From: Klebsiella phage KpLz-2_45
Sequence record: MN871446.1
Length of the DNA: 64,000 nt
Reading direction: 5' to 3' (one strand)
Each line of letters starts with the position of its first letter. Position 1 is the first letter of the stretch. The notes below the pieces were generated by a model. It made no database searches. It was given only the letters and a program-made list of their open reading frames with translations, and was not told where the DNA came from. Shown piece after piece: positions 12,185-60,339 of this stretch. The position numbers were made by a program, and so were the translations under genes.

Positions 12185-13010
12185 ACTCCGGGAGTGGTAA
12201 TTTAGTCACAATTCTTGAAATTGTTAATAGCGTTTTCGGGTCGATGAAATAATGCGGCAGTTCTTCGCCAATACGCTCTTTGATTTTATCGTTCGGAATA
12301 CCAGCAGCAATCGCAGAGAAAACTGCTAACTTACCAATAACCTCCGGTGTATTCTTTTCCTCTGAAAAGTAATAATCCAGGAAATTAGTTAATGGCTCAC
12401 CTACACTACCGCCGTCTTTGAAGAAACGCACTGCTCGTTCGATCCCGTAGAAATTCAGGGCGTTCTTTGTTCTTTCAACCAGGGCGGTGTCGACGGAATC
12501 GTCTTCGGGGAAACGATAGGTCATTTCGTTGAGGTAATCTCGGAGACGATAGAGTAATGAAGGTGAGACTTCGGCGGTGAGTTCAAGGATCTGATTAGTG
12601 TCGAGCGTATTGTCCACCACGTGCAGTACTTCGGCGATTTTTTCTTTTGGGTCCTCGGCGATTTCTAACGCGTACTTAACCGACTGAAGATCCTCGTGTG
12701 AATCGACGTGATATAAAGCCTGACAGATCTTTGCGAGGAGTTCGAGTTTACCGTAAAGCGGTTGGTCATCGCTCAGGTATAGACCGAACTCTTCAATACC
12801 TTCTACCAACAAGTCGGTGACGATCTGGTCGAATTGTGCGACGTTGTCTACTGTCGTAAATTCATCGAGGTAGGTGGTAAACTGATTAAACTGTAGTTCG
12901 AAAGTACCTGGGTCTAAACGATACAAAAACGGCAGTACAACTTTATATGTTGAAACTCTGGCTTCTGACACCGTACGTGTCAGATAGTTGAGTAAATTGT
13001 CGATCAGCAT
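12171..13010 (-). CDS. hypothetical protein
   Basis: 279 aa ORF. Confidence 0.5.
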   Translation of the reverse strand: MLIDNLLNYLTRTVSEARVSTYKVVLPFLYRLDPGTFELQFNQFTTYLDEFTTVDNVAQFDQIVTDLLVEGIEEFGLYLSDDQPLYGKLELLAKICQALYHVDSHEDLQSVKYALEIAEDPKEKIAEVLHVVDNTLDTNQILELTAEVSPSLLYRLRDYLNEMTYRFPEDDSVDTALVERTKNALNFYGIERAVRFFKDGGSVGEPLTNFLDYYFSEEKNTPEVIGKLAVFSAIAAGIPNDKIKERIGEELPHYFIDPKTLLTISRIVTKLPLPEFDHA

Positions 13011-22692: not shown

Positions 22693-22752
22693 CTTTTTGC
22701 GCCTTCAATTGATGAAAAAGAAAATGTATGGTTCATAAAATTAACAGCATAA

Positions 22753-22777
22753 AGAGAGGGTCTTTCGACCCTCTCTC
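22753..22777. terminator. hairpin
   Basis: agagagggtc-tttc-gaccctctct 10 bp stem. Confidence 0.4.
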
Positions 22778-23815
22778 GTACTGACTAATAGTCAAAAGGA
22801 TCTCAGTGTTTAGCTCATAGATGACTTATCGCACATCATCCTTTTCATGTTAAGGTCGCCACCGAAACATGTTTATTCTCGGCTATACGAGTTAGCTTAA
22901 TTTCCAGATTTTTAATACCCGATCCCTTCTACGTTGGAGAAATGGATCGAATAGGGTGACGCCCCCGGACATTTTTGCCGGCTCCTTGCACCTCTTTCGC
23001 CGGAATCCCCGGCTGAGGTCTATGGTCTATGGCCGCCTATTTTCGCTCTAAGGCGTAGGCCGCCGAAATTGACAGGCGTCATAATTAGTACCCCTCGGCC
23101 GATTCCGCGGCGCGTTTAACCGGCGGGTCGCCGAAGTCTTTGTCTCACGAGAGTTACCAATAAGTTATTGCTTATTGGACAAATCATTCGGATACGATTC
23201 CGAACTCCCTTCCTACCGAGCCTCTACTACCGAGCAGGAGTCGAACCTGCACTCTCTGTAAACAATATCACTTGACTAGAGCAGTATTGTAAAGGTTACG
23301 TGGACTTTAAAAGTGTAGAATGGGTATCAGTTAATTTGTTGCGGCCGCATACCGGTAACTGACTTCTTCTACTAGCGCCACCACTGACTCCGGTGTCTCG
23401 CCTAGTGGCGTTGTGCGACCCATTAACTCGCACTCTCTCTTTTAAGTCCAACTTTGGTTGATAGGTACCGAATCGAACGGCTATCTCAGGCTCCCATGTT
23501 AAGGCGCCCCTCGTATGAGAGGGGGCCTAATGCCCGCGCTTTACCTTTAAGCTAGCCTATCATTGAATAGGTTCCCTAGCACTCAATGAGTATCATCTAC
23601 ACCAGCAGCGCCCGGTGTTTAGCCGAGATGCAATTATGCTTAAATGGGTCGTATTTAACGGCTCATTTATTCGTCGATGATTTACGTAGGGATAACAAGG
23701 AGACATCCCCCTCAGCACGCCGAGGTCAACTTTTTCCTTAGGTCAAGATTAACTCTCCGCAACATTAAGTCGCCTGGTTAACCCCTGCCTTTAGTCTAAG
23801 CAAGATGTCATTATT

Positions 23816-23905
23816 TGGCAGAGAGTGAGAGATTCGAACTCTCGGTACCCTTTCGGATACACTCCCTTAGCAGGGGAGCGACTTAAACCGCTCATCCAAC
23901 TCTCT
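23816..23905 (-). tRNA. tRNA-Ser (anticodon GCU), class II with long variable arm, CCA encoded
   Basis: Acceptor AGAGAGT/ACTCTCT; anticodon arm CTCCC-CTGCTAA-GGGAG; long V-arm; T-arm GAGAG-TTCGAAT-CTCTC. Confidence 0.8.
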
Positions 23906-23912
23906 ATTAAAA

Positions 23913-23989
23913 TGGCGACTCTTCCAGGACTTGAACCTGGGACCTACAGCTTAACAGGCTGCCGTTCTAACCAACTGAACTAAAGAGTC
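23913..23989 (-). tRNA. tRNA-Asn (anticodon GUU)
   Basis: GACTCTT-TA-GTTC-AGTTGGTTA-GAAC; anticodon loop CTGTTAA; T-arm CCAGG-TTCAAGT-CCTGG; CCA encoded. Confidence 0.85.
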
Positions 23990-23995
23990 ATTATT

Positions 23996-24070
23996 TGGCG
24001 GTGCTACGGAGAATCGAACTCCGGTCTCCTCCGTGACAGGGAGGTATCCTTTCCGCTAGACGATAGCACC
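23996..24070 (-). tRNA. tRNA-Asp (anticodon GUC)
   Basis: GGTGCTA acceptor; anticodon arm CCTCC-CTGTCAC-GGAGG; T-arm CGGAG-TTCGATT-CTCCG; CCA encoded. Confidence 0.85.
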
Positions 24071-24077
24071 TTTTGTT

Positions 24078-24179
24078 TGGTTGTTCCCTTCCGGATTTGA
24101 ACCGGCAACCTCCTGCTAAGCAGTGGGCGGCGCAGTGGCCGCCGATGCAGGCGCTCTACCTAGTTGAGCTACGAGAACA
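24078..24179 (-). tRNA. tRNA-like gene with a 23-30 nt GC-hairpin insertion in the anticodon arm (intron-containing tRNA or pseudogene)
   Basis: Canonical D-arm GCTC-AACTAGGTA-GAGC and T-loop TTCAAAT; anticodon stem CCTGC/GCAGG encloses 30 nt including hairpin GGCGGC-CACTGC-GCCGCC and a direct repeat CCACTGC; acceptor has one mismatch. Confidence 0.4.
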
Positions 24180-24186
24180 TTGAATC

Positions 24187-24262
24187 TGGAGCAAGCAGCG
24201 AGGTTCGAACTCGCGACCTATGACTTGGAAGGACATCGCTCTACCAACTGAGCTATACTTGC
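24187..24262 (-). tRNA. tRNA-Gly (anticodon UCC)
   Basis: GCAAGTA-TA-GCTC-AGTTGGTA-GAGC; anticodon loop CTTCCAA; T-arm GCGAG-TTCGAAC-CTCGC; CCA encoded. Confidence 0.85.
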
Positions 24263-24340: not shown

Positions 24341-24796
24341 TTATATCTTTGGTTTCTTATTAGCCTTTTTACAGGCAGCTCTGTAACCGACCGTATCAAA
24401 AATACCATTGATGGAATGTTTAATGATTATACCCTGAGAAAGTCCGGTAAATAACGCGGCATCTCTAATCGTGTCATAGATCCACCCATCAATAACCCAA
24501 CAAGTTCTCCGTTTCACGTCGGCGTAATAATGAACTTCTTTACTATCATGATAATTATCACGATCCGTACCAATAGACAAATGCTCAGGATTACAGCAAC
24601 GGGTGTTATGGCAAGAATGTCTTACTACTTTACCAATTGGCACTGGCCCATAAACTGTAGTGAAGACAAATTTATGAGTTGTCCAATATTTACCGTTCCG
24701 TGTAAACTGGCCGTAACCAGCGCTATTGCAAGATTTATTCCAATTCCAGCAACCGGTTACTTTATCTACCGTTGTATTTTCTTTAATAAATTCCAT
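24341..24796 (-). CDS. HNH homing endonuclease
   Basis: GCWNWNKSCNSAGYGQF and HSCHNTRCCNPEHL motifs typical of phage HNH endonucleases; embedded between tRNA genes. Confidence 0.7.
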   Translation of the reverse strand: MEFIKENTTVDKVTGCWNWNKSCNSAGYGQFTRNGKYWTTHKFVFTTVYGPVPIGKVVRHSCHNTRCCNPEHLSIGTDRDNYHDSKEVHYYADVKRRTCWVIDGWIYDTIRDAALFTGLSQGIIIKHSINGIFDTVGYRAACKKANKKPKI

Positions 24797-24894: not shown

Positions 24895-24979
24895 TGGTGC
24901 CCAGGGCGGGGCTCGAACCCGCACGCGATAAAGCGAGGGATTTTAAATCCCTTGTGTCTGCCGATTTCACCACCTGGGC
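24895..24979 (-). tRNA. tRNA-Leu (anticodon UAA), class II
   Basis: GCCCAGG acceptor; 3 bp D-stem; anticodon arm AGGGA-TTTAAAA-TCCCT; long variable arm; T-arm GCGGG-TTCGAGC-CCCGC; CCA encoded. Confidence 0.8.
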
Positions 24980-24984
24980 AAATA

Positions 24985-25060
24985 TGGTGGGTCCAGCAGG
25001 TTTTGAACCTGCGACCAAGCGATTATGAGTCGCCTGCTCTAACCACTGAGCTATGGACCC
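24985..25060 (-). tRNA. tRNA-Ile (anticodon CAU, lysidine type) or Met-elongator
   Basis: Anticodon arm GGCGA-CTCATAA-TCGCT and D-arm identical to E. coli ileX (tRNA-Ile2); T-arm GCAGG-TTCAAAA-CCTGC. Confidence 0.75.
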
Positions 25061-25279: not shown

Positions 25280-26137
25280 TTATTTTCCCGACGCTGTACC
25301 CTGAACGCGCGCAGAGTTCTTCAGAAGAATTGTAGAGGCATCTTCAAGGAACTGGTCGCTGTCGCCTGAGGTATTCGCTACCACCAGGGTTTTAGTGCAA
25401 GGGACTTTTACTGTCGAATTGAAAAGGATGCCCGAGTCGGTTGTTGCTTTTTCGATCGTGTACACCGCTTTACCGTTCGGCAGTTTTGCATCAGCATTCC
25501 AGGAGTTGAAATCAATGATCTCGAGTCCCGAGTCTTTTTGCATGACTGCGTCCAGGAATTTATTATTCCGGTCGGGTGCAGAAACCCAAAGGAACGCGTC
25601 GTATTCGCCAGTATTCACTTTAGCCAGGGAACGGATACCGCCTTTGGCATACGTTTCAACTTTCGCGTAGTTTTTCTCCAATGTCTGGAGATACTGCCAC
25701 GAAGCGTAAGATCCAGAGGTAGGTTCGCCCACAGCGATCTTCGTACCTTCTTTTAAATCACCTTTACTGGTGACCTTACCGTCTTTCTTGACGGCGACAA
25801 AGACGCACTCGCTGGCCAATTCGCCAATGATATCAACGTTCTGTGCTTCATTGGCATGACGCGAACGCCAGAACTGATAGGCATCAGCTTGGGTAAACCC
25901 GATAGTGGCTTCTCCCGAGGCTACACGATCAAGGTTATCGAGTGAGCCTTTAGAAGGGACAACCGAGGTCTGGTAACCGTACTCACCCAGAGCACTGGCT
26001 AAGTTTACACCATAAATGGCGTTATAGGTTAAACCTTGTTGACCGGTGGTAATAACAATTTTGCCATCGGCCGCGGATACGCCAGCACTCATGCAAAGTA
26101 ACGCTACCGAAATCACGGCAAAAGCAAGTTTCTTCAT
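25280..26137 (-). CDS. periplasmic substrate-binding protein (PBP fold) with signal peptide
   Basis: MKKLAFAVISVALLCMSAGVSA signal peptide at the internal Met (tabulated ORF extends to 26227); mature domain about 260 aa with SBP-like composition. Confidence 0.5.
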   Translation of the reverse strand: MKKLAFAVISVALLCMSAGVSAADGKIVITTGQQGLTYNAIYGVNLASALGEYGYQTSVVPSKGSLDNLDRVASGEATIGFTQADAYQFWRSRHANEAQNVDIIGELASECVFVAVKKDGKVTSKGDLKEGTKIAVGEPTSGSYASWQYLQTLEKNYAKVETYAKGGIRSLAKVNTGEYDAFLWVSAPDRNNKFLDAVMQKDSGLEIIDFNSWNADAKLPNGKAVYTIEKATTDSGILFNSTVKVPCTKTLVVANTSGDSDQFLEDASTILLKNSARVQGTASGK

Positions 26138-26248
26138 TTGCATTCCCTTTAAGGAAAGTATGGGTGTCAAGCGGCATAACCGCCACAGTGAATTTGAGAG
26201 GCTGACAAGTTGGCCCAACATGTGCATTAATCATGTCACGGAATAAAG

Positions 26249-27826: not shown

Positions 27827-27992
27827 GATTAATTCATTTATCAAAAAGTGATCTCTTTGAAAAAGAAACTTTTGTGGTAAGAAGGGCGGAGGTAAGGATA
27901 TAACCATCCCCAACACCGCCCATAGCCATTCAGCTATAAACAGAATTTAGCGCGACCTATCTAAGAATAAGATTGGAAGTTTTATTTTATAA

Positions 27993-28023
27993 TCTAGTGC
28001 TCTACCGGCTGAGCTATCTGCCT
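27993..28023 (-). other. tRNA 5' half Y (acceptor 5' strand, D-arm, anticodon-stem 5' strand), downstream member of a permuted pair
   Basis: AGGCAGA-TA-GCTC-AGCCGGTA-GAGC-A-CTAGA; followed by a degenerate vestigial 3' part (CTTAG ATAGGTC GCGC TAAATTC). Confidence 0.45.
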
Positions 28024-28050
28024 CCAAGAAACACTCTGTGAATGTGTCCA

Positions 28051-28087
28051 GGTAGGCAGAGCGGAATTCGAATCCGCGACCTCTAGA
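28051..28087 (-). other. tRNA 3' half Y (anticodon-stem 3' strand, V-loop, T-arm, acceptor 3' strand), upstream member of a permuted pair
   Basis: TCTAG-AGGTC-GCGGA-TTCGAAT-TCCGC-TCTGCCT-A-CC; acceptor 7/7 and anticodon stem 5/5 complementary to 5' half Y, which lies 27 nt downstream. Confidence 0.45.
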
Positions 28088-28210
28088 ATTCTTTCCGTAA
28101 AAGAAAGAAAGTTCAGTCCGCTATTTTACTGTTTACTCTTTATCTTTAAGCGTGTGAGGCGATAAGATAAAGTTAACACTAACCATCTGGGTCGCATTAT
28201 GGGTGCATTG

Positions 28211-34308: not shown

Positions 34309-34656
34309 TTAAACCAATAACCCTAAAGCAATACCAAAAAGCGTACCGATGAAAATCCCTAAGACAACGGGTTTAAATGCACTACTCAGCGATCCATTAC
34401 GCTCTAAGAGACGTTCCCTTTCTTTGGCCAGTAATTCCTGTTCTTTCTCGTTTAACGCGTCAGCGTGGCGCTGAGCGTCTTCTGCGGTCTCATACACCGA
34501 GAAAGTCCGACAACCAAATTGATCAGTTTCATGCGTATAACGGTATTCGTCGTCGTAGCTCGTGACCTTTCTGTCCATGGGTAAGTCGTTAATCGACAAC
34601 TGATATTTATTGTACATCACGACGTAACCCTTTTTGTATCGATTGATTCCGTACAT
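34309..34656 (-). CDS. hypothetical protein with C-terminal transmembrane anchor
   Basis: C-terminal VVLGIFIGTLFGIALGLLV hydrophobic segment. Confidence 0.45.
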   Translation of the reverse strand: MYGINRYKKGYVVMYNKYQLSINDLPMDRKVTSYDDEYRYTHETDQFGCRTFSVYETAEDAQRHADALNEKEQELLAKERERLLERNGSLSSAFKPVVLGIFIGTLFGIALGLLV

Positions 34657-42627: not shown

Positions 42628-44595
42628 TTAGATACGTTTTAAACGCATTTCCTTATCGACATCCAACAACAGATAGTCGAAGGGATGGTTCTCTTTAATC
42701 GGGTCATACGAGCCCGGAGAGAGCATGTTTTGATACTGCTTCTCGTAAGCACATTTCACCGAGAGACTCCGTCCAGACATGATATCGGATTTCGTAGCGA
42801 AGTAACGTCCCGTCCCTTTCTTCGGTAAACGGAAATCGCCATTCTTCGGATCACGCGACATCATGGCGTAAAGGACAATTTCCACAATCGCCAGGTTAAC
42901 CGAGAACTTACGGTTCGTCATTTCCGAAATGTCTTTCAACGCCATCGCCAGAATGTCAGGGTCGGTTAAGTCATACCGTAACCGCTCTTTCGATTCCTTA
43001 CTCGACATGAAGATATTGGATTTTAACTCCATCATCATCTCGAGCGTCGAGCTATGACGTTCCGGGAATTTCAGAATACTTTCTGAAGGGTCCCAGTTTT
43101 TCAGATCAACCCGAATCTTACGCCCTAAGTTCTGGAAACCGTAATCCTTCATGTGCTGAATAAAGGCAGCGGTTAAGAACGGTTTATAAGACGAATGACT
43201 TGTAGCGATCAATTCTTCCTTGATAGTCCCTTTGACATCGCCTTGGTGAACGATGATCATGACGTCTTCTACGCCTGAAATACGGCGGAGGTCATTTTGA
43301 CTGAACTCGGTCATCGCATGAATATCGGAAAGACGTGGCAGATACGCCATATCGATTTCGATTTCCACATGATGATTCCAGATCGCCTCAGACAGCATCA
43401 GCTCAGAAATATCCGACGCATTGACCATATAGTCCTTATAGAACGGATCGATTTCAAAACCTTCCGTCTCAGCAGAGCGCAGAAGGTGTTTCGTCGAGAT
43501 AACGTCCTGAGAGACCTTTTCGTTCTGGGTTACGGTTGCAGCATGTCCCAGGTTAGTGCCTCGTTGTACGGATCGCGCCAACTGGCCCATACAGGTGCTA
43601 CAGACTACGCCGTCATCGGGGTGCCAACAACACGCCACATTCCGCAGCTGGATCGTTTTCCCTACCAGGAAGACGTCTCCTGCCTTAATGGCTTTGAGTT
43701 GTCCTGTTTCAGTGAGATAAAACTTACCGGGTAAGATATTATCCAGTTCGTTTTTCTTCACCGTCCACGGGATCGTTTCCGTACTTCCGCAATCCCCCAT
43801 CCAAATGCTCTTCACAACGTACGTAAAGAGCTGCAGCTCACGGTTATAATACTCCGTCTGCTTAACAGGATCGTCCGTCGCCTGGAGCGCTTTAGAGGCG
43901 TCTCTGGAGATCATGGCGAAGAAACTGGCCCGATGTATCCCTTCGAAGAAACCCGCATTGACGACGTTAGGAAAGATGCTCTGATCAACTTCAGAACACC
44001 ACCCTCGTTTCCCGATGACCTGGTGGAACTGCGCCATCTTCGTCTGACCGATGTGACAGGCCAGCGCCATGCTGTTCCCTTGTAAGAAGGGGTCAGTGGC
44101 AATCACACGGGAAATCACCCCGTATGCACGGTTGACCCCGCCAGGGCTCGGTTCCATGTTATAGAGCGCATTCTGGATCTCAGGGCGGTCGTAGATATCC
44201 AATAACGTCAGAACATCAACGGTATCGATATACGCCTCGCCGCGCGTCGTGAAGGCATTGTGTAACCGGTTATTGCCGCGATAGATAGCAGCCTGTAGGT
44301 TTTCAATGTCTTCATGCGGATACGCTTCGAGAACAACCTCCTTCATGCGGTTGAGGATTTTTAATTCCAACCCCGGCGAATCAAAGTCATCCCAGAGATG
44401 ATGACGAATACTGATTTGTGCGTCAGGGTAGTCTCGAAATACCTCCCAGAAATACCAACTAACAATCGTCTGCGACCAATCTGTAATGATCTCGCCATCA
44501 CTGAAGACTAAACGAAATCGATCGTGGTCGTGTTCCTTTTTCCAGAGTTCTTCCTCGGTCCAGTGTACGATGTCTTCTGCCCACACAACTTGCAT
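42628..44595 (-). CDS. hypothetical protein translationally coupled to the RNAP beta-like gene (candidate RNAP subunit)
   Basis: TAATG overlap with the upstream beta-like gene; Cys cluster CCWHPDDGVVCSTCMG; no NADFDGD. Confidence 0.45.
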   Translation of the reverse strand: MQVVWAEDIVHWTEEELWKKEHDHDRFRLVFSDGEIITDWSQTIVSWYFWEVFRDYPDAQISIRHHLWDDFDSPGLELKILNRMKEVVLEAYPHEDIENLQAAIYRGNNRLHNAFTTRGEAYIDTVDVLTLLDIYDRPEIQNALYNMEPSPGGVNRAYGVISRVIATDPFLQGNSMALACHIGQTKMAQFHQVIGKRGWCSEVDQSIFPNVVNAGFFEGIHRASFFAMISRDASKALQATDDPVKQTEYYNRELQLFTYVVKSIWMGDCGSTETIPWTVKKNELDNILPGKFYLTETGQLKAIKAGDVFLVGKTIQLRNVACCWHPDDGVVCSTCMGQLARSVQRGTNLGHAATVTQNEKVSQDVISTKHLLRSAETEGFEIDPFYKDYMVNASDISELMLSEAIWNHHVEIEIDMAYLPRLSDIHAMTEFSQNDLRRISGVEDVMIIVHQGDVKGTIKEELIATSHSSYKPFLTAAFIQHMKDYGFQNLGRKIRVDLKNWDPSESILKFPERHSSTLEMMMELKSNIFMSSKESKERLRYDLTDPDILAMALKDISEMTNRKFSVNLAIVEIVLYAMMSRDPKNGDFRLPKKGTGRYFATKSDIMSGRSLSVKCAYEKQYQNMLSPGSYDPIKENHPFDYLLLDVDKEMRLKRI

Positions 44596-46865
44596 TATTC
44601 ATCCTCTTCGAGCGCGTCGTTATCTTCTTCTGGAATTTCAAACTCATCTTCCAGTTCCGGGTCTTCATCGTAGTTGATTTCTATTTCAGGAATGTCGGAG
44701 AAATCGTCTCTGTAACCCGGCTTGGTTCGGGTTGCCGCTCGGATTTTCTCTTCTTCCACTGGGGTAATGTTATCCACGTTCATGTACGCCATTTTCACCC
44801 CTGAGCAATAGAGTGTATTGTTCAGATAGTTCAGCGCCATGCTGTTACCCAGCGGGATCTCGTTACGGTCAATACAGAAATCGAGATCAACAGGGTTTTC
44901 CGCAGAGATAATCTTACTCCATTGGTATTCCTGCGCTTTCGGGTTATTGGCACGATCCAGCATATCAGCCGCCCACTTCCCGCCAACGATACCAACATAG
45001 TTTCGAATCTCCGATTCACCGAAGAGACGGAACGGGATTTTACGGAAAGGTAAGTTGAAACGCTCACGACCGGAAGGCTTGGTAGGAACACCATGCACCT
45101 GTCGTTTAGCGATATCCACTGCACCCCAGTCATGGCCGGTTTTCTCAAGGACAATGACCTTGATTTCCCCGATCATCGTTGGCTTCGTACTGGTAACACG
45201 TTCGCCCAGATCATTGATCCAGGTAACATGCTCAACCGGTTCAGGAAATGCCTCACGTAACCGCCGACATTGTTCTGCCCCCAGGCCCGGTGTGTACGGC
45301 GGCATATAGGCGAAAATCGCATCTTCTGCCACGGCATCAACGTGTTGTTTAATCCGATCAAACGACCAATTTTGCTGATCAATCTTATCGAGATAAACAG
45401 GCGTCGCCGCCCGATAATAACGACGAAGTAATTCGTAACATTCGAGATACGTCTCCTTACTCTTACTCTCCTTCAGCATGGCACGAATCGGTTTCTCCAC
45501 CCGCTGTTCGGCGATGTAATTACAATACTGCTCGATGAACATACTGGGGTTCATTCGGTTTGCAATGCTGAAACCGTCAACGATCAGGTCAGCAGTCGTT
45601 CCGTCTTCATAACGCGGCATTTTAGCACGAGGTTTCTTCGCACAGATAACGCCTTTCATGCCATAGTCAGTCGAGAGCTTATAACCGATAGTGGGGGTGA
45701 TGTCGTACATGAAAGAGATCTTCACGTACAGCGTGGGGATGCTCTGTTTCTTTAAACGGAAACGTCGTTTTCCTTCTGGGGCCGAAGTGAAGACGATTGC
45801 ATCGGTGATAAGTCGATGAAGTTTCTTCGACAACGCGGGTTCCTTTCCTTGCCCTGCTTCACGACGCAGTTGACGATAGACTTTGACGATCGCATCCATG
45901 TAACGCAATTTCGCTTTCCACAGACGTGTGATAGCATCATCTTCACCGTATTCTTTCCCGGTGAACTCCGGCATGGCATCCAGTTTATCCCCATCAGACA
46001 TCCACAGGTCGATATCAACGACTCGCGCATTCTCAACGCCTGCTTCGATAAAATATTTCTCATCGAAATAGTAGTCGTAATCTTCCATGGCCTCCGCCGT
46101 CATTTCGACACAACCTAACATGTCGTCATATTCGCGCAGCGCCATTAAGAGTCCGTCTTTACGAATCTGCTCACCTGGTAACGGAAGAGGACGATAACGT
46201 TTACTGTTCCCGTAGGTATTGATCGGATACTTACCTTTAGGAACAATAATCGTGACCTCGCCAAAGCCCGTGGTCTGATTCTCCTTACACCATTCTTCTG
46301 ACACCAGAAAACCGTCTTCGGTCACAGCGTGATGACTTTGGAAGGTTGTTTTGGTACGGGTAGCATAAATGTAATCGCCGTCTGGCGTTACCCCCGGAGA
46401 ACGATTGAGTCGAACTCCTCGTTGAAGAATCTCGCCAGGTCGCATGAGTTTTTGATTCTCTATGACCGGGACGAATTCAAAGCCGAAGCTAGTGTGATGA
46501 GAACAATAGGTATCGTAGTCCAGGTAGTCGTATTCACGCGTTTCCATGTTACGTACGATAACAATCTTTTTCGGGTTACTTTTAAAACTCTCGGAACCTC
46601 GACCCACCTCAAACTTGTCGATTACCGCAATCACTTCCGCAGGGAACTGAACGCGACAACCGAAAGTATATTCGGCATACTCTTTCTCAACACCCACGAA
46701 AAAGCGGGGTCGATTGATCCCTTTTGTGATCAGTTTTTGCTGTATCTGCGATGCCAGCATAACCAAACGAGAAGGCGATGTACAAACTGCCCAGGGTCCG
46801 AGGTGAGTGGCTGTCCCTATCAGATCAACATCCATTTGATGTTCATTAGGTAACTTTTCTCTCAT
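44595..46865 (-). CDS. multisubunit RNA polymerase beta-like subunit (C-terminal catalytic region)
   Basis: DYGMKGVICAK resembles GRHGNKGVISK; TADLIVDGFSIANRMNPS resembles PVDIVLNPLGVPSRMNIGQ; GG..RFGE-like segment. Confidence 0.65.
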   Translation of the reverse strand: MREKLPNEHQMDVDLIGTATHLGPWAVCTSPSRLVMLASQIQQKLITKGINRPRFFVGVEKEYAEYTFGCRVQFPAEVIAVIDKFEVGRGSESFKSNPKKIVIVRNMETREYDYLDYDTYCSHHTSFGFEFVPVIENQKLMRPGEILQRGVRLNRSPGVTPDGDYIYATRTKTTFQSHHAVTEDGFLVSEEWCKENQTTGFGEVTIIVPKGKYPINTYGNSKRYRPLPLPGEQIRKDGLLMALREYDDMLGCVEMTAEAMEDYDYYFDEKYFIEAGVENARVVDIDLWMSDGDKLDAMPEFTGKEYGEDDAITRLWKAKLRYMDAIVKVYRQLRREAGQGKEPALSKKLHRLITDAIVFTSAPEGKRRFRLKKQSIPTLYVKISFMYDITPTIGYKLSTDYGMKGVICAKKPRAKMPRYEDGTTADLIVDGFSIANRMNPSMFIEQYCNYIAEQRVEKPIRAMLKESKSKETYLECYELLRRYYRAATPVYLDKIDQQNWSFDRIKQHVDAVAEDAIFAYMPPYTPGLGAEQCRRLREAFPEPVEHVTWINDLGERVTSTKPTMIGEIKVIVLEKTGHDWGAVDIAKRQVHGVPTKPSGRERFNLPFRKIPFRLFGESEIRNYVGIVGGKWAADMLDRANNPKAQEYQWSKIISAENPVDLDFCIDRNEIPLGNSMALNYLNNTLYCSGVKMAYMNVDNITPVEEEKIRAATRTKPGYRDDFSDIPEIEINYDEDPELEDEFEIPEEDNDALEEDE

Positions 46866-56282: not shown

Positions 56283-56903
56283 TTACAGTTTCTCACCTAA
56301 CGGACTGAAGGGGTCAATGCCTTCATCAATCGCGTTATTGATCACGTCAAAGGTCGCGCAAAGTTCCATCTGCTGTTCCAACGTCAGATGTTCTTCACCT
56401 TCAACATCACAAGCGCCATAGGTGTATTCCACCCACCACTCCCCTTTACTGTTTTTCTCTGCAACTCCATTGCGAATCGCTTTCCAGTAAGGGTCGTTTT
56501 CCGGCGTAGTCTCAAACACAAAGGCGTCGCGTTTAGAACCCCAGCCGTGCGTACTCTGGCGATCCCAAAGTGAACGGGTTCTCGGACTACTGAGTAACCA
56601 ACGTCGCATCTTCAGCGGTGCACTGGCCACTTCCTCAGGACTGTCCAAGAACTGAATAATGTTATCACGATAGAGACCGCGTTTACTGCTGTTCAAACGC
56701 TTGAGCTGACTTCTGACTGTGTCATCATAAAGCGATGAAATCATTGTCTTCGCCGAGTTCAGCATTCCTTTCGCCCGGTCAGACAGATTGGAACTAAAAC
56801 GCTCCAGTCTATCGTAAGAGCGCTGAATGTCCTCACGATCGGGAAGACCGAAGGCCGCTGCCCTAAAAACAGACTCACCGCCATCGATAATTGCAATTTT
56901 CAA
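56283..56903 (-). CDS. hypothetical protein
   Basis: 206 aa ORF with ATGA overlap to the upstream gene. Confidence 0.5.
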   Translation of the reverse strand: MKIAIIDGGESVFRAAAFGLPDREDIQRSYDRLERFSSNLSDRAKGMLNSAKTMISSLYDDTVRSQLKRLNSSKRGLYRDNIIQFLDSPEEVASAPLKMRRWLLSSPRTRSLWDRQSTHGWGSKRDAFVFETTPENDPYWKAIRNGVAEKNSKGEWWVEYTYGACDVEGEEHLTLEQQMELCATFDVINNAIDEGIDPFSPLGEKL

Positions 56904-58354
56904 AAGTGTCTCCCGTATAAGAAATTGTTGATTGTGGAACGCACAGGTTTCCCAATCTCCATGTTGCTATTCAAACTCAGAGGTTTATTGAGATCGAAAG
57001 TCCCCGTGTGCGGAGAAAGCTTCCGTATAGCAATAAAGTCCTCACGTGAAAGAATAGGCATTCCCGCGAGCTGGTCCCCATCGAAATCGCAGTTAGGGGC
57101 TCGGAGCACGAGTAAGCTTAGGCCGATGGTATTGTCGTGAGGGTCTGTCTTGAAGCGTGTAACGAACAGAGACTGTACTGAACGCAGGTTTAAGGTCGGG
57201 TTACGACCCAAGATCTGCGGTAAGCCACGTTTACCCTGAAGCGTTTCGTAAGGAGAACGATCAATCAGACGATTGAGAAGATCGTGCATGTACGGGTCGT
57301 ATTGCCCTACACAATCCAAAATGAACCGCTCACTCTGCGCCAAGGTTAATCCGTCACGCATTAACATCCCAAGAAGATGCGTATGATACAAGGTTATACC
57401 CATACCCCAAGGCATGTGCATTTCTTCGTAGTCATGTGCACCGGACAACGAACTCACCACGCCACGATAAGTCGGTCCTGTACGAGAACCGAAGATCTGT
57501 TTACGATACCAACCAGGTTTCGAACCCAAAACATTCTTATCGACAAACTCACGATACGCAATCAGCATTGTTAATGCTTTAAACGTATTATGCTCACGGG
57601 TGTTTTGATAACGGGGTTCCTCTTTCCCAACGAGTCCGTAAATGGCCCTTGCTGCGTCAACCACATTGACATAGCCCTCCGCGCAAAAGCGCGTTTTGTT
57701 TGAGAGTTCTGTAATGATACTACGCCGACTGGGTAACGGGATATATTGCGAAAAGAGGAGATGACGATTGTTGCGCATGAAGTCATAAACTTCGGTTCGC
57801 TTCTGGTCGGGTTTGAAGACAGGGGCCGTCATCAGTAATTCCAGAATTTCGTCGAAGTGATCAATGAAGTGGTTATACCCTCTTGGTATCCCTAACTTCT
57901 TGAATCGTTCATAGACTATGCTGTTGCGATTCTTAGGCTCATACCGCGTATTACAGAGCCATTCTATCGCACTAAAATCGTCTTGCTTAAAAGCCCGCAT
58001 TAACATATCGAGCGCATTAACGCGTATAAAGGCTCTAACGCCATGAGGGACTTTCATCCAAACACTGGACTCAAAACCTCGGTCAATCGGTGACATCACT
58101 TCAGTGTCACAATACGGACACACGGTATTGGCGGTGCCAGGTTTGGTTGAGGTATTATAACGACCAGTGGTCATCCCACATTCACACGAGGGTAACGTAT
58201 CGATCACGTCGCCTTCATACTCTGTCATGGTTAATTCACGGACAGGGTCAATGAGTTCATATTCGTCGGAACGAATTTCATTGAGAATAATAGGAGGACG
58301 TTTGAGCCGTTGTATGTCTTTGTCGTAGTCAGGTAACGCGTAATAAATGCCCAT
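56900..58354 (-). CDS. multisubunit RNA polymerase beta-prime-like subunit, N-terminal catalytic segment
   Basis: RAPNCDFDGDQLAGMP matches the universal NADFDGD Mg-binding motif. Confidence 0.65.
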   Translation of the reverse strand: MGIYYALPDYDKDIQRLKRPPIILNEIRSDEYELIDPVRELTMTEYEGDVIDTLPSCECGMTTGRYNTSTKPGTANTVCPYCDTEVMSPIDRGFESSVWMKVPHGVRAFIRVNALDMLMRAFKQDDFSAIEWLCNTRYEPKNRNSIVYERFKKLGIPRGYNHFIDHFDEILELLMTAPVFKPDQKRTEVYDFMRNNRHLLFSQYIPLPSRRSIITELSNKTRFCAEGYVNVVDAARAIYGLVGKEEPRYQNTREHNTFKALTMLIAYREFVDKNVLGSKPGWYRKQIFGSRTGPTYRGVVSSLSGAHDYEEMHMPWGMGITLYHTHLLGMLMRDGLTLAQSERFILDCVGQYDPYMHDLLNRLIDRSPYETLQGKRGLPQILGRNPTLNLRSVQSLFVTRFKTDPHDNTIGLSLLVLRAPNCDFDGDQLAGMPILSREDFIAIRKLSPHTGTFDLNKPLSLNSNMEIGKPVRSTINNFLYGRHF

Positions 58355-58437: not shown

Positions 58438-60339
58438 TTAACGACCGCCGAAACCGTAAGAAGAACGGGCACGAGAACGGAAACCTGCACCGTCATAGCC
58501 GTTGGATTCGTAACGAGAGGTATAACCACGACGGCTGGTACGGCCATCCTGAGTAATACCATCAGCGGTAACCACCATGCCTGCTGCAGACAGTGCGCGG
58601 GTCAGGCCGAACAGCCAGTTGGCGTTCACTTCGATGACGTCTGCACGGTCGGTGATCTGATACTGACCGCCGGTGTAGTCTTCGATGATTTTTTCCATCT
58701 GGTCCATACGGACTTGCAGATCGATCGAATCGTCGTTCAGGCAACGATCGTAATCGGCAACCACCTGCGGAGATTTCAGACCGAAGTTGGTCAGAATTTC
58801 GTAGTAACCGATTTCACGCAGGTCACGTTTATGACCCTGTTCGTCGATCCAGGTGCCCAGCAGTTGCGGCATGTCGCGGATGATACCCACGTCGTACAGA
58901 TCTGAGGTGTTCATGATGGTAGAGAAACGATCGCCGGAGATGTTGTCGGCGGCTTCGATCAGCACGTCAACAGCTTCTTTACGGTTCGGGTTCGTTTCGT
59001 CGCACGCATCAACCAGCAGCTGCAGCAGCGGGGTGTTGATGGAAGAACGCGGGATCTGGATCTGAACGATCTGGCTGTTCTCACGAACAACGTTAGCCAC
59101 CAGGCCAGCCCATTCGTCGTCGTTCAGAACTTCCGGGAGTTTTTCAAACTCGCCTTTCAGTTCATAGGTCAGAGCTTCAGCGGTACGCAGCGCGCCTTTG
59201 GTGTTCAGCGGACGCAGACCCTGAATCAGAGCCGGTTCAGTCATCAGTGCAGATACCTGTGCCAGAGAGAACATCAGGTATTCAGGAATCGCCACGCATT
59301 TCAGATCGCTGATCACCAGAGCGATACCGTAGATACGGGTATCGAAGTCTTCCGCTTTCTTTTTGCGCAGTGCAAAGAAACTGTTGGACTGCTCTTCTTC
59401 GCCTTTGTAATACAGGTCGACGTGGGAGATCAGACCGGCCAGCTGAGTGGACTCACGCTCGGACAATACGTTAACAATACCGCCACGACGTTCGTCACGC
59501 GGCGCCACCATCAGATCAACAACGATATCGGCGCGATGCGGCATTTCGGTGATGTCGTCAGCAACGTCACCTTGATGGAACGCGATGTTCGCCAGCAGAT
59601 CGTTATTTTTCAGGTCCAGCGCCGCAATGCTGAACTCGTTAGTGGTCAGGATCGCGTTAACGGAATAGATGATCTGGTTGATCACGGCAGAAGCGATACG
59701 CTCCAGTTCTGCGTCGGTCGGTTTGTCCAGGAAGATCGGGGACGCCGCCAGATGCTGAACCTGGCCGGTGAATGCCGGGTTGGACAGGGCAATCAGATCG
59801 TCCAGGGACTCTTTATAGCCGATCGCTTCGTACTGGTCGTTAGCGGTGGTGGTGAAACGCACGGTGTGGTCACGACCAACCTGCACGGCCTGTTTCGGCA
59901 TCACGGTGTTACCCACGAAGATCACGGTAGACGCGAAGATCATGCCGTTGTCTTTCAGACGGGCAGCGATGACCGCAGCGTCCAGTTTCATTTGGGTATC
60001 TTTGCCTGTTGCCGGCGTTACCGTCCATTCCAGGACACCGTTCAGGCTGATCGCGGCGCTGTGCTGTTTCTGGATTTCTTTGGTCAGTTCGACGAATTTG
60101 GCTACGTCGCCTGCCGCAGAGTTCAGGGACAGTACTGGCGCATCTTTACGGAAGTTATAGGATGAAGTCACTTTTTTCTCCTGACGGGAATCATTTTCGT
60201 TGGAACGGGTGTAAAAGGAACGGCGGCGTGCAGAGGATTCTTCCTGGCGACCTTCGTCGCGAGAAGTTTCCTGCGCACCAGTTTCTACTGCTGCTTCTTC
60301 TGCTTTGTTTTTGTTGTGATCGTCATCACGTAAGGCCAT
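58438..60339 (-). CDS. abundant-protein candidate with disordered N-terminus and RG-rich C-terminal tail
   Basis: 633 aa; host-optimal codon usage; N-terminal 60 aa charged and disordered; C-terminal GRTSRRGYTSRYESNGYDGAGFRSRARSSYGFGGR. Confidence 0.55.
   Translation of the reverse strand: MALRDDDHNKNKAEEAAVETGAQETSRDEGRQEESSARRRSFYTRSNENDSRQEKKVTSSYNFRKDAPVLSLNSAAGDVAKFVELTKEIQKQHSAAISLNGVLEWTVTPATGKDTQMKLDAAVIAARLKDNGMIFASTVIFVGNTVMPKQAVQVGRDHTVRFTTTANDQYEAIGYKESLDDLIALSNPAFTGQVQHLAASPIFLDKPTDAELERIASAVINQIIYSVNAILTTNEFSIAALDLKNNDLLANIAFHQGDVADDITEMPHRADIVVDLMVAPRDERRGGIVNVLSERESTQLAGLISHVDLYYKGEEEQSNSFFALRKKKAEDFDTRIYGIALVISDLKCVAIPEYLMFSLAQVSALMTEPALIQGLRPLNTKGALRTAEALTYELKGEFEKLPEVLNDDEWAGLVANVVRENSQIVQIQIPRSSINTPLLQLLVDACDETNPNRKEAVDVLIEAADNISGDRFSTIMNTSDLYDVGIIRDMPQLLGTWIDEQGHKRDLREIGYYEILTNFGLKSPQVVADYDRCLNDDSIDLQVRMDQMEKIIEDYTGGQYQITDRADVIEVNANWLFGLTRALSAAGMVVTADGITQDGRTSRRGYTSRYESNGYDGAGFRSRARSSYGFGGR

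Follow-up and report, generated by a model that had tools for sequence, protein, structure and literature searches.

The jumbo Klebsiella phage KpLz-2_45, which has a genome of ~300 kb and belongs to the genus Maaswegvirus (phiKp24/FBKp24-like), carries two tRNA-shaped genes whose anticodon loops are enlarged by a structured insert. Both lie on the minus strand of the 64,000-nucleotide (nt) stretch analyzed here (sequence record MN871446.1; hereafter, the window), in an array of tRNA genes. The first, t1, has an anticodon loop of 30 nt; the second, t2, is of the same design, has a loop of 40 nt, and sits 0.5 kb downstream. Comparison of their sequences across the genus suggests, at a probability that we put near 0.4, that t1 is a functional tRNA-like RNA that does not decode, a mimic that would act through its tRNA body, and that its sister t2 probably is one too. 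The features on which this reading rests are as follows.

24078..24179, minus strand: t1, a tRNA-shaped gene with an insert in its 30-nt anticodon loop (from sequence, Rfam, ARAGORN, and conservation)
24179, 24178, and 24081-24078, minus strand: U-1, G1, and the encoded ACCA of t1
24117..24146, minus strand: the anticodon-loop insert of t1, AUC-GGCGGC-CACUGC-GCCGCC-CACUGCUUA, its fast-evolving part
24126..24143, minus strand: a perfect 6-bp hairpin with a 6-nt loop, GGCGGC-CACUGC-GCCGCC, within the t1 insert
24138-24132 and 24126-24120, minus strand: the two copies of the direct repeat CCACUGC around GCCGC, in the t1 insert
23455..23562, minus strand: t2, the second tRNA-shaped gene, with a 40-nt anticodon loop (from Rfam, ARAGORN, folding, and conservation)

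On the minus strand, the 5′ half of t1 reads U(-1)-GUUCUCG-UA-GCUC-AACUAGGUA-GAGC-G-CCUGC and the 3′ half, after the loop, GCAGG-AGGUU-GCCGG-UUCAAAU-CCGGA-AGGGAAC-A-ACCA; between them, the 5-bp stem CCUGC/GCAGG closes the 30-nt loop AUCGGCGGCCACUGCGCCGCCCACUGCUUA. The D arm (GCUC/GAGC), the T loop (UUCAAAU), and the encoded ACCA are those of a tRNA cloverleaf, and what departs from it is the anticodon loop, which should have 7 nt with U33 and a purine at position 37 and instead has 30 nt (18 nt in the divergent relative L274). A first-pass annotation, made from the letters of the window, had described these cloverleaf elements and the encoded CCA, a 5-bp anticodon stem enclosing 30 nt, and within that loop the perfect hairpin and the CCACTGC repeat, all of which hold on the minus strand. 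Its placement of t1 in register within a five-tRNA array holds for the spacers, which measure 7-8 nt on the tRNA-Gly side and 7 nt on the tRNA-Asp side, whereas the contiguous block comprises only Ser-Asn-Asp-t1-Gly, with Leu and Met lying past an HNH gene. When the t1 loop is shuffled (n = 200,000), 1.1% of cases contain a direct repeat of at least 7 nt, 2.8% a perfect 6-bp hairpin, and 0.07% both.

The Rfam tRNA model (RF00005) matches t1 at 38.9 bits, above the gathering score of 29, and assigns the insert to the anticodon loop (E-value 5e-6 when 3 kb are searched and 1e-4 for the whole 64-kb window). ARAGORN misses the gene at its default settings; with introns allowed, it returns a tRNA-Ser(gct) with a 23-nt intron and the loop CUGCUUA. 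Rfam takes as position 1 the G that follows the U at 24179. Because the 3′ end of t1 is A-ACCA, this U-1 could pair with A73, a possible eighth acceptor pair followed by the 4-nt ACCA. The acceptor/T stack is irregular, with G7.A66 and G49.A65 mismatches in most lineages. No isotype could be assigned to the t1 body, which has no G3:U70, no A20, and not the long variable arm of tRNA-Ser. Its D arm is common to Met, Lys, Trp, and Thr tRNAs of other phages, and its best matches in an Escherichia coli collection, prophage and P1-like tRNA-Thr(UGU) genes, have only the D arm and anticodon stem in common with it. Used as a metagenome search pattern, the anticodon stem with its flanks proved to be the common arm of the tRNA-Ala type, so that, among the matches listed, those to this pattern are ordinary 7-nt loops. 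The exposed loop and tail sequences have no antisense targets in the window besides the genes themselves.

The same Rfam search found t2, at 34.4 bits. Its 5-bp anticodon stem encloses 40 nt that begin with AUU, continue with a hairpin of ~27 nt interrupted by a one-base bulge, and end in UAACAUGGGA, giving the outline AUU-[~27-nt hairpin]-UAACAU-GGGA. Removal of 33 nt (23528-23496) leaves AUUGGGA, the loop of a tRNA-Pro(UGG), and ARAGORN with introns allowed likewise reports a tRNA-Pro(tgg) with a 33-nt intron. The minimum free energy (MFE) fold of t2 is a cloverleaf (z = -2.3).

A BLAST search of 50,697 phage records found t1 and t2 each in 11 of 11 records of the genus and nowhere else in the collection. 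More divergent relatives (L268, L271/L272, L273, and L274) were reached through neighboring proteins in assembly collections, and the resulting comparison covers nine distinct array variants with seven distinct t1 and five distinct t2 sequences. Both genes are kept in all nine variants although the arrays are strongly mosaic: tRNA-Asp is missing in L004, L045, L268, and L271, tRNA-Ser in L004 and L268, and the window itself has an HNH gene at the site where relatives have tRNA-Gln, tRNA-Tyr, a small open reading frame (ORF), and tRNA-Arg. The array of L274 consists of Met, t1, a NUMOD4 endonuclease gene, and t2, so that only Met, t1, and t2 are kept of its tRNA-like units. In every variant, t2 is the last tRNA-like unit and directly precedes a non-coding block, and the edges of conservation fall at the gene ends.

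No uninterrupted orthologue of either gene, that is, one with a 7-nt loop, was found among the 11 genomes of the genus or the nine array variants; the first-pass annotation had named such related phages, together with transcripts in the unprocessed long form only, as pointing to a pseudogene. Scans of IMG/VR with the D-arm pattern returned phiKp24-type copies only, plus one unrelated analogue (L043), and among more distant jumbo phages, the arrays of Erwinia phages Huxley and Kwan and of Pseudomonas phage phiHQ hold no insert-bearing tRNA of this type. The GenBank record MJ359 labels t1 and t2 “tRNA-OTHER,” and the other records of the genus leave both unannotated. The phiKp24 genome paper lists nine tRNAs, including a “suppressor,” and mentions neither gene. 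Elsewhere in the phiKp24 array (L003, ~2095-2169), a hybrid tRNA has the 5′ portion of tRNA-Gln and, joined to it at the T arm, the 3′ portion of tRNA-Gly; it apparently arose by a recombination deletion between neighboring tRNA genes and is annotated plainly as tRNA-Gln.

The window and its most divergent relative, L268, share only 46% identity in a neighboring protein but have the same base at each of the 72 positions of the t1 body, and all 7 substitutions in t1 fall inside the 30-nt insert (hypergeometric p ~1e-4). Over the same distance, tRNA-Asn is identical at 67/77 and tRNA-Gly at 75/76 positions; tRNA-Arg (64/77) and tRNA-Tyr (76/84) were compared between L001 and L268, because the window has neither gene. 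The L268 insert, GCC-GACGGC-CACUGC-GCCGCC-AAACGCCUA, has the hairpin with one mismatch and lacks the direct repeat. In phiKp24 and KpLz_1_41 the insert begins with ACC, not AUC; Centimanus and L273 have CACUGU in the hairpin loop; and in KpXa_1 the first tail base is changed. The CCACUGC repeat is mutated in Centimanus, L273, and KpXa_1, and a single copy of it is present in L274. There, the loop is reduced to the 18 nt ACCGGCGGCCACUGCUUA: the missing 12 nt equal one repeat copy plus GCCGC, as expected from slippage between the repeats, and because they include its 3′ strand, the hairpin is gone.

These differences bear directly on whether t1 could decode. Orthologues do not have the same anticodon, since the window-type tail CACUGCUUA stands against AAACGCCUA in L268 and the 5′ flank is AUC, ACC, or GCC; whichever number k of bases is kept at the 5′ end of the loop, with 7-k at the 3′ end, the lineages do not all agree on one anticodon (for example, GCU versus GCC). 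C often occupies the would-be position 33, and every version has a pyrimidine at position 37. The Ser-like mature loop CTGCTTA (anticodon GCU) proposed in the first-pass annotation does not survive this comparison: L268 has ACGCCUA at that place, phiKp24 and L274 give C at position 33 when the first two loop bases are kept, and the pyrimidine at 37 and the absent long variable arm are equally out of keeping with a spliced tRNA-Ser, a reading of t1 that the data do not support.

Changes in the t1 body are confined to Centimanus and L274, where they fall in the T arm and acceptor and improve pairing. In these two, G7.A66 becomes G-C and G49.A65 becomes A-U or G.U, and the 8/5 stack that the possible U-1:A73 pair would give is fully paired (13 stacked pairs). 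At T-loop positions 54:58, where the canonical tRNAs of the same arrays keep U54:A58, U:A has become A:U on two separate occasions, once in t1 of L004 (Centimanus) and once in t2 of L274, and t1 of L274 has U:U; these swaps suggest that the constraints on the T loops of t1 and t2 differ from those on elongator tRNAs. For its part, t2 keeps ~97% identity even between lineages in which the sequences immediately 5′ and 3′ of it defy alignment. The only changes in its anticodon stem are from G-C to G.U or back, all five distinct variants have AUU...GGG(A/G), and the insert is not significantly more variable than the body (4/33 versus 4/75).

The surroundings of the two genes, and other features of the window that bear on their interpretation, are as follows.

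23816..24070, minus strand: canonical tRNA-Ser(GCU), tRNA-Asn(GUU), and tRNA-Asp(GUC), downstream of t1 in the same array
24187..24262, minus strand: canonical tRNA-Gly(UCC), directly upstream of t1
24341-24796, minus strand: HNH homing-endonuclease ORF (Pfam HNH_3, 43.9 bits), between tRNA-Gly and tRNA-Leu
24895..25060, minus strand: canonical tRNA-Leu(UAA) and tRNA-Met/Ile2(CAU), the head of the array
22745..23454, minus strand: conserved non-coding block of ~700 nt directly after t2, with a terminator-like hairpin at its end
25280-26227, minus strand: TAXI/NMT1-like solute-binding protein gene that adjoins the array
27966-28093, minus strand: circularly permuted tRNA-like RNA, a YrlA-like candidate (Rfam YrlA 37.6 bits versus a gathering score of 69, E = 8e-6)
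58438-60339, minus strand: homologue of chimallin, the phage-nucleus shell protein (Pfam, 75.8 bits)
44595-46865 and 56900-58354: split RNA-polymerase beta/beta′ subunits

The non-coding block after t2 is GC-rich, 73-93% identical across all relatives, and contains T-arm-like hairpins; the phiKp24 annotation has a terminator at the site that matches its end, and the block probably belongs to the same transcription unit as the array. Its first 158 nt are found only in window-type lineages and L268, and in the corresponding region of L268 lies an extra tRNA-like match (12247-12333, 31 bits) with a 22-nt insert in the D loop. No Rfam family matched the block in the window, and a pistol ribozyme hit farther downstream was below threshold (19.5 versus 34.5 bits) and was taken as chance. 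Endonuclease genes recur in these arrays, with an HNH gene between Leu and Met in Centimanus and the NUMOD4 ORF between t1 and t2 in L274, and the mosaicism of the arrays was probably driven by endonuclease traffic. The adjoining TAXI-like gene looks recently acquired from the host: homologues 73-75% identical occur in IMG/VR contigs that also have the enterobacterial small RNA STnc100, and a synteny search through this gene led to enterobacterial chromosomal homologues and to no phages. A TAXI gene likewise lies next to the tRNA array in the Erwinia jumbo phage Kwan.

The chimallin homologue and the split RNA-polymerase subunits, together with a tubulin-like protein in phiKp24, indicate that the phage is probably of the nucleus-forming type. 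Tpt1/KptA (Pfam, 145 bits) is encoded in 11 of 11 genomes and RtcB (402 bits) in 5 of 11; in phiKp24 (MW394391), their loci are 191106-191669 and 174955-176199, respectively, and this phage also encodes two macro-domain proteins and NAD salvage genes. RtcB is missing from the records whose arrays are closest to that of the window (KpXa_1, LPKP23, and MJ359). Universal presence of a 2′-phosphotransferase implies either an RNA substrate with a 2′-phosphate or a role in ADP-ribosylation. Tpt1/KptA is common to many Erwinia jumbo phages as well. A phiKp24 ORF carrying the note “putative tRNA nuclease WapA” (34309-34656 in the window) was set aside, as that label had no support from Pfam or from sequence searches of PDB; homologues of this ORF are confined to close relatives of the window phage.

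Collectively, these data suggest a model in which t1 would be transcribed together with the tRNA array and released like a tRNA by RNase P and 3′ trimming, as its in-register spacers, cloverleaf, and encoded ACCA lead one to expect. It would then accumulate as an L-shaped RNA of ~102 nt in which the anticodon loop has given way to a variable structured insert, precluding codon reading. Such a mimic might bind or titrate a tRNA-recognizing factor through the invariant body, that is, the acceptor, D arm, T arm, and CCA end, and in that case the anticodon loop could quite possibly be free to change or be driven to change. The likeliest arena would be a conflict over tRNA damage and repair, with host anticodon or tRNA nucleases on one side and phage RNA-repair enzymes on the other; for a nucleus-forming phage, this would outweigh DNA-targeting defense because the phage DNA is shielded. 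The strongest single argument for a mimic is that ordinary supplementary tRNAs are expendable in the genus and t1 and t2 are not. The genus also offers a supporting context in the YrlA-like RNA 3.8 kb away, Tpt1/KptA, RtcB, the macro domains, and the chimallin homologue. As far as sequence can tell, the “structured decoy” that the first-pass annotation offered among its options would agree with all of the comparative data.

Several observations weigh against a mimic. A hypervariable region within a conserved body is also the pattern of an intron, and a pure mimic would have no need for the good tRNA-Pro(UGG) loop that excision would recreate in each variant of t2. Conservation of the body could stem in part from recent recombination among the mosaic arrays. 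Folded alone, t1 has an MFE structure 1-4 kcal/mol better than the cloverleaf with its hairpin (z = -1.0), and folding of several variants allows the 5′ half of the insert to pair with the variable-loop and T-stem region. Covariation statistics on t1 and t2 had no power because the sequences are too alike and the pairs almost never vary.

An alternative that we consider rather unlikely is that the insert is a protein-spliced intervening sequence: an endonuclease would cut the loop twice and an RNA ligase would join the halves into a decoding tRNA, the ligase being RtcB or one that leaves a 2′-phosphate, with the junction cleaned by Tpt1. For t1 taken alone this is unlikely, and for t2 the likelihood is higher. 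ARAGORN with introns allowed finds valid cloverleaves for both genes, the Tpt1 of every genome and the RtcB of 5 of 11 would suit this reading, predicted introns have been reported in Lak megaphage tRNAs (PMC6784885), and the t1 insert evolves faster than the would-be exons. In t2, excision of 33 nt yields AUUGGG(A/G), with U33, anticodon UGG, and G37, in five of five variants; the D arm is identical to that of another phage tRNA-Pro(UGG) (L049), and the arrays contain no other tRNA-Pro. Codon usage was uninformative on this point (CCA makes up 15% of Pro codons). The first-pass annotation had raised an intron-containing tRNA, and splicing as such fits t2 better than t1, for which no excision gives an anticodon loop kept across lineages. 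The bulge-helix-bulge (BHB) form it suggested is not borne out. A BHB intron has two 3-nt bulges on opposite strands with a 4-bp helix between them; t1, checked by hand, has a 5′ bulge of 3 nt, but its helix is of 6 bp and is followed on the 3′ side by 9 unpaired nt, and t2 has AUU, a 4-bp helix, and a 1-nt bulge at which a cut would not leave a 7-nt loop, so that neither sequence nor folds contain the motif. A group I intron is rejected as well, since the inserts have 18-40 nt against the ~200 nt needed and Rfam E-value searches over the array matched tRNA only, with no intron or small-ribozyme family. Neither a splicing endonuclease nor an ATP-dependent/Trl1/Rnl-type RNA ligase was recognized among the window ORFs compared with Pfam or the ten phiKp24 ORFs around RtcB and Tpt1, and RtcB itself is absent from 6 of 11 genomes, including the closest relatives of the window. 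Moreover, the would-be anticodon-loop bases of t2 are no better kept than its insert (1/7 variable columns versus 5/33), elongator tRNAs do not usually have such an irregular 8/5 stack or changes at 54:58, and free loss of supplementary tRNAs in the genus is at odds with two genes that are never lost. The full claim, that Maaswegvirus carries out protein-catalyzed tRNA splicing in a bacterial cell, with an endonuclease excising the 33-nt t2 and the 18-30-nt t1 inserts and RtcB or Tpt1-dependent ligation producing tRNA-Pro(UGG) and a second tRNA, strikes us as quite improbable; if splicing does occur, the insert might hide the precursor from host anticodon nucleases until it is needed.

The remaining explanations are less probable still. 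That the tRNA shape is a cis-acting processing or folding element, punctuating the polycistronic transcript for RNase P and 3′-end cleavage (and, for example, freeing the ~700-nt non-coding RNA after t2) or serving as a structural switch, is distinctly improbable. The constant position of t2 directly before the conserved block and a freely varying anticodon loop would suit such a purely structural role, as would the alternative 10-bp pairing between the 5′ half of the insert and the variable-loop/T-stem region predicted in several t1 variants, but this pairing is mismatched in Centimanus and L268, any canonical tRNA of the array could punctuate as well, and t1 lies between canonical tRNAs where no extra signal is needed. 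A former tRNA with a Thr/Ala/Lys/Arg-like body that lost its function when slippage or template switching introduced the insertion, and that has been decaying since, would explain a t1 loop unable to decode, a repeat and 12-nt length polymorphism that resemble replication slippage, and G.A mismatches that weaken the acceptor/T junction. We nevertheless hold such a pseudogene, which is what the first-pass annotation meant by a tRNA inactivated by a small insertion, to be very unlikely, because t1 is retained in every genome while real tRNAs are lost, its body has 0/72 changes relative to L268 and is more conserved than the neighboring real tRNAs, its T-arm and acceptor changes restore pairs, and a second gene of the same design exists; the match between the edges of conservation and the gene ends likewise speaks against decay. 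The insertion footprint suggested in the same annotation, whether the cargo of a mobile element (a hairpin like those of miniature inverted-repeat transposable elements or repetitive extragenic palindromes, with a target-site duplication) or a variant conferring immunity to a homing endonuclease, is partly in line with the data: the 7-nt repeat flanks part of the GC hairpin, L274 lacks exactly 12 nt and so has exactly one repeat copy, and homing-endonuclease genes are present in the arrays of the window, Centimanus, and L274. Yet the loop of this “empty” L274 form is still 18 nt long, and in L268 the hairpin is present but the repeat is not. The hairpin is single-copy in the window, and each of the 16 further exact matches to it in IMG/VR belongs to a terminator or to coding sequence of an unrelated phage; nor does a 5-nt cargo with a 7-nt duplication match any known type of element. 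These points make a mobile origin extremely unlikely.

Phage tRNA arrays are usually read as supplements to codon usage or as spares against tRNA-cleaving immunity. In Maaswegvirus, the two array members that every phage keeps are the two that are unable to decode as written. If t1 and t2 are mimics, they would form a class of phage-encoded tRNA mimics, fast-evolving at their “business end” and possibly serving as decoys or cofactors where tRNA damage and repair are contested, which would be relevant to nucleus-forming phages. If they are spliced, they would provide a case of protein-dependent tRNA splicing in a bacterial system, which to our knowledge has not been demonstrated so far. Because phiKp24 and several of its relatives are cultured on Klebsiella pneumoniae, the question of phage tRNA introns, raised from metagenomes in 2019, is directly testable here. 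Genome annotations omit the two genes or label them “tRNA-OTHER.”

Several known RNAs resemble t1 and t2 in part. YrlA and Y RNA-like molecules are non-decoding, have tRNA-like D and T arms, occur in some phages, and are associated with RtcB-type repair modules; YrlA RNAs are circularly permuted and have no free CCA end and a Ro-binding stem, and as tRNA mimics they were reportedly described by Chen et al. in 2014 (RF02553). In contrast, t1 has normal topology and an encoded CCA, and the YrlA model scores it at 22.5 bits against a gathering score of 69, overlapping two genes. The RNA at 27966-28093 is closer to this type: its 5′ part comprises the anticodon-stem 3′ strand, variable loop, T arm, acceptor 3′ strand with ACC, and a linker of ~30 nt, and its 3′ part the acceptor 5′ strand, D arm, and anticodon-stem 5′ strand. 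The phiKp24 annotation and genome paper treat the orthologous site as a “suppressor tRNA-Sup-TTA.” No Ro/TROVE protein was recognized, and a 563-aa ORF beside the phiKp24 RtcB gene has no Pfam match. Species 1 and 2 of phage T4 (rnaC/rnaD) are stable non-tRNA RNAs that are co-encoded and co-processed with the T4 tRNA cluster, but, unlike t1, they do not have a cloverleaf with an anticodon-loop insert (a comparison of form, not of sequence). Bacterial tRNA-Sec has an 8/5 acceptor/T stack, which t1 of Centimanus and L274 matches with an 8-bp acceptor (including U-1:A73) and a 5-bp T stem, whereas t1 has neither the long variable arm nor the 6-bp D stem and UCA anticodon of tRNA-Sec.

Among tRNA introns, those of group I likewise interrupt the anticodon loop but are at least ~200 nt long and contain a conserved catalytic core (P1-P9). 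Archaeal and eukaryal tRNA introns are, like the inserts here, short and in the anticodon loop, and the genus has homologues of RtcB and Tpt1; the differences are the missing BHB motif, the lack of a recognized endonuclease, RtcB in 5 of 11 genomes, and a bacterial host. The nearest parallel in phages is provided by the “enigmatic” predicted introns of Lak megaphage tRNA genes (Devoto et al. 2019, PMC6784885). In both cases, oversized phage tRNA genes are missed by bacterial tRNA finders, and an anticodon-loop insert too short for a group I intron is kept among related phages. An oversized gene with a conserved insert describes both t1 and t2; excision would restore a normal tRNA in t2 and not in t1, which has no conserved anticodon. 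However, the one Lak intron examined has 93 nt, lies at the canonical position 37/38, and contains a T-arm-like sequence, while the inserts of t1 and t2 have 18-40 nt, lie within or before the anticodon, and come from a cultured phage; moreover, Lak tRNAs exist with and without the intron, and t1 and t2 were found only with the insert. Other IMG/VR phage contigs also carry inserts in the anticodon region (L093:6718-6841, L026:3713-3836, L041:3230-3552, L058:4761-4879 and its counterparts in L065/L067/L073/L076, L043:13393-13504, and L008:5369-5498). They include an Asn(GUU) gene whose anticodon is interrupted by 51 nt and a family of tRNAs that contain a T-arm-like hairpin internally. In another case, two adjacent tRNA genes have one insert of ~55 nt in common, an arrangement suggestive of mobility, and a gene that stands alone combines the D arm of t2 with a loop of 44 nt and likewise has U-1...A-ACCA ends. 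With such further cases in unrelated contigs, insert-bearing phage tRNA genes appear to be a recurrent kind, of which t1 and t2 are the members kept throughout Maaswegvirus.

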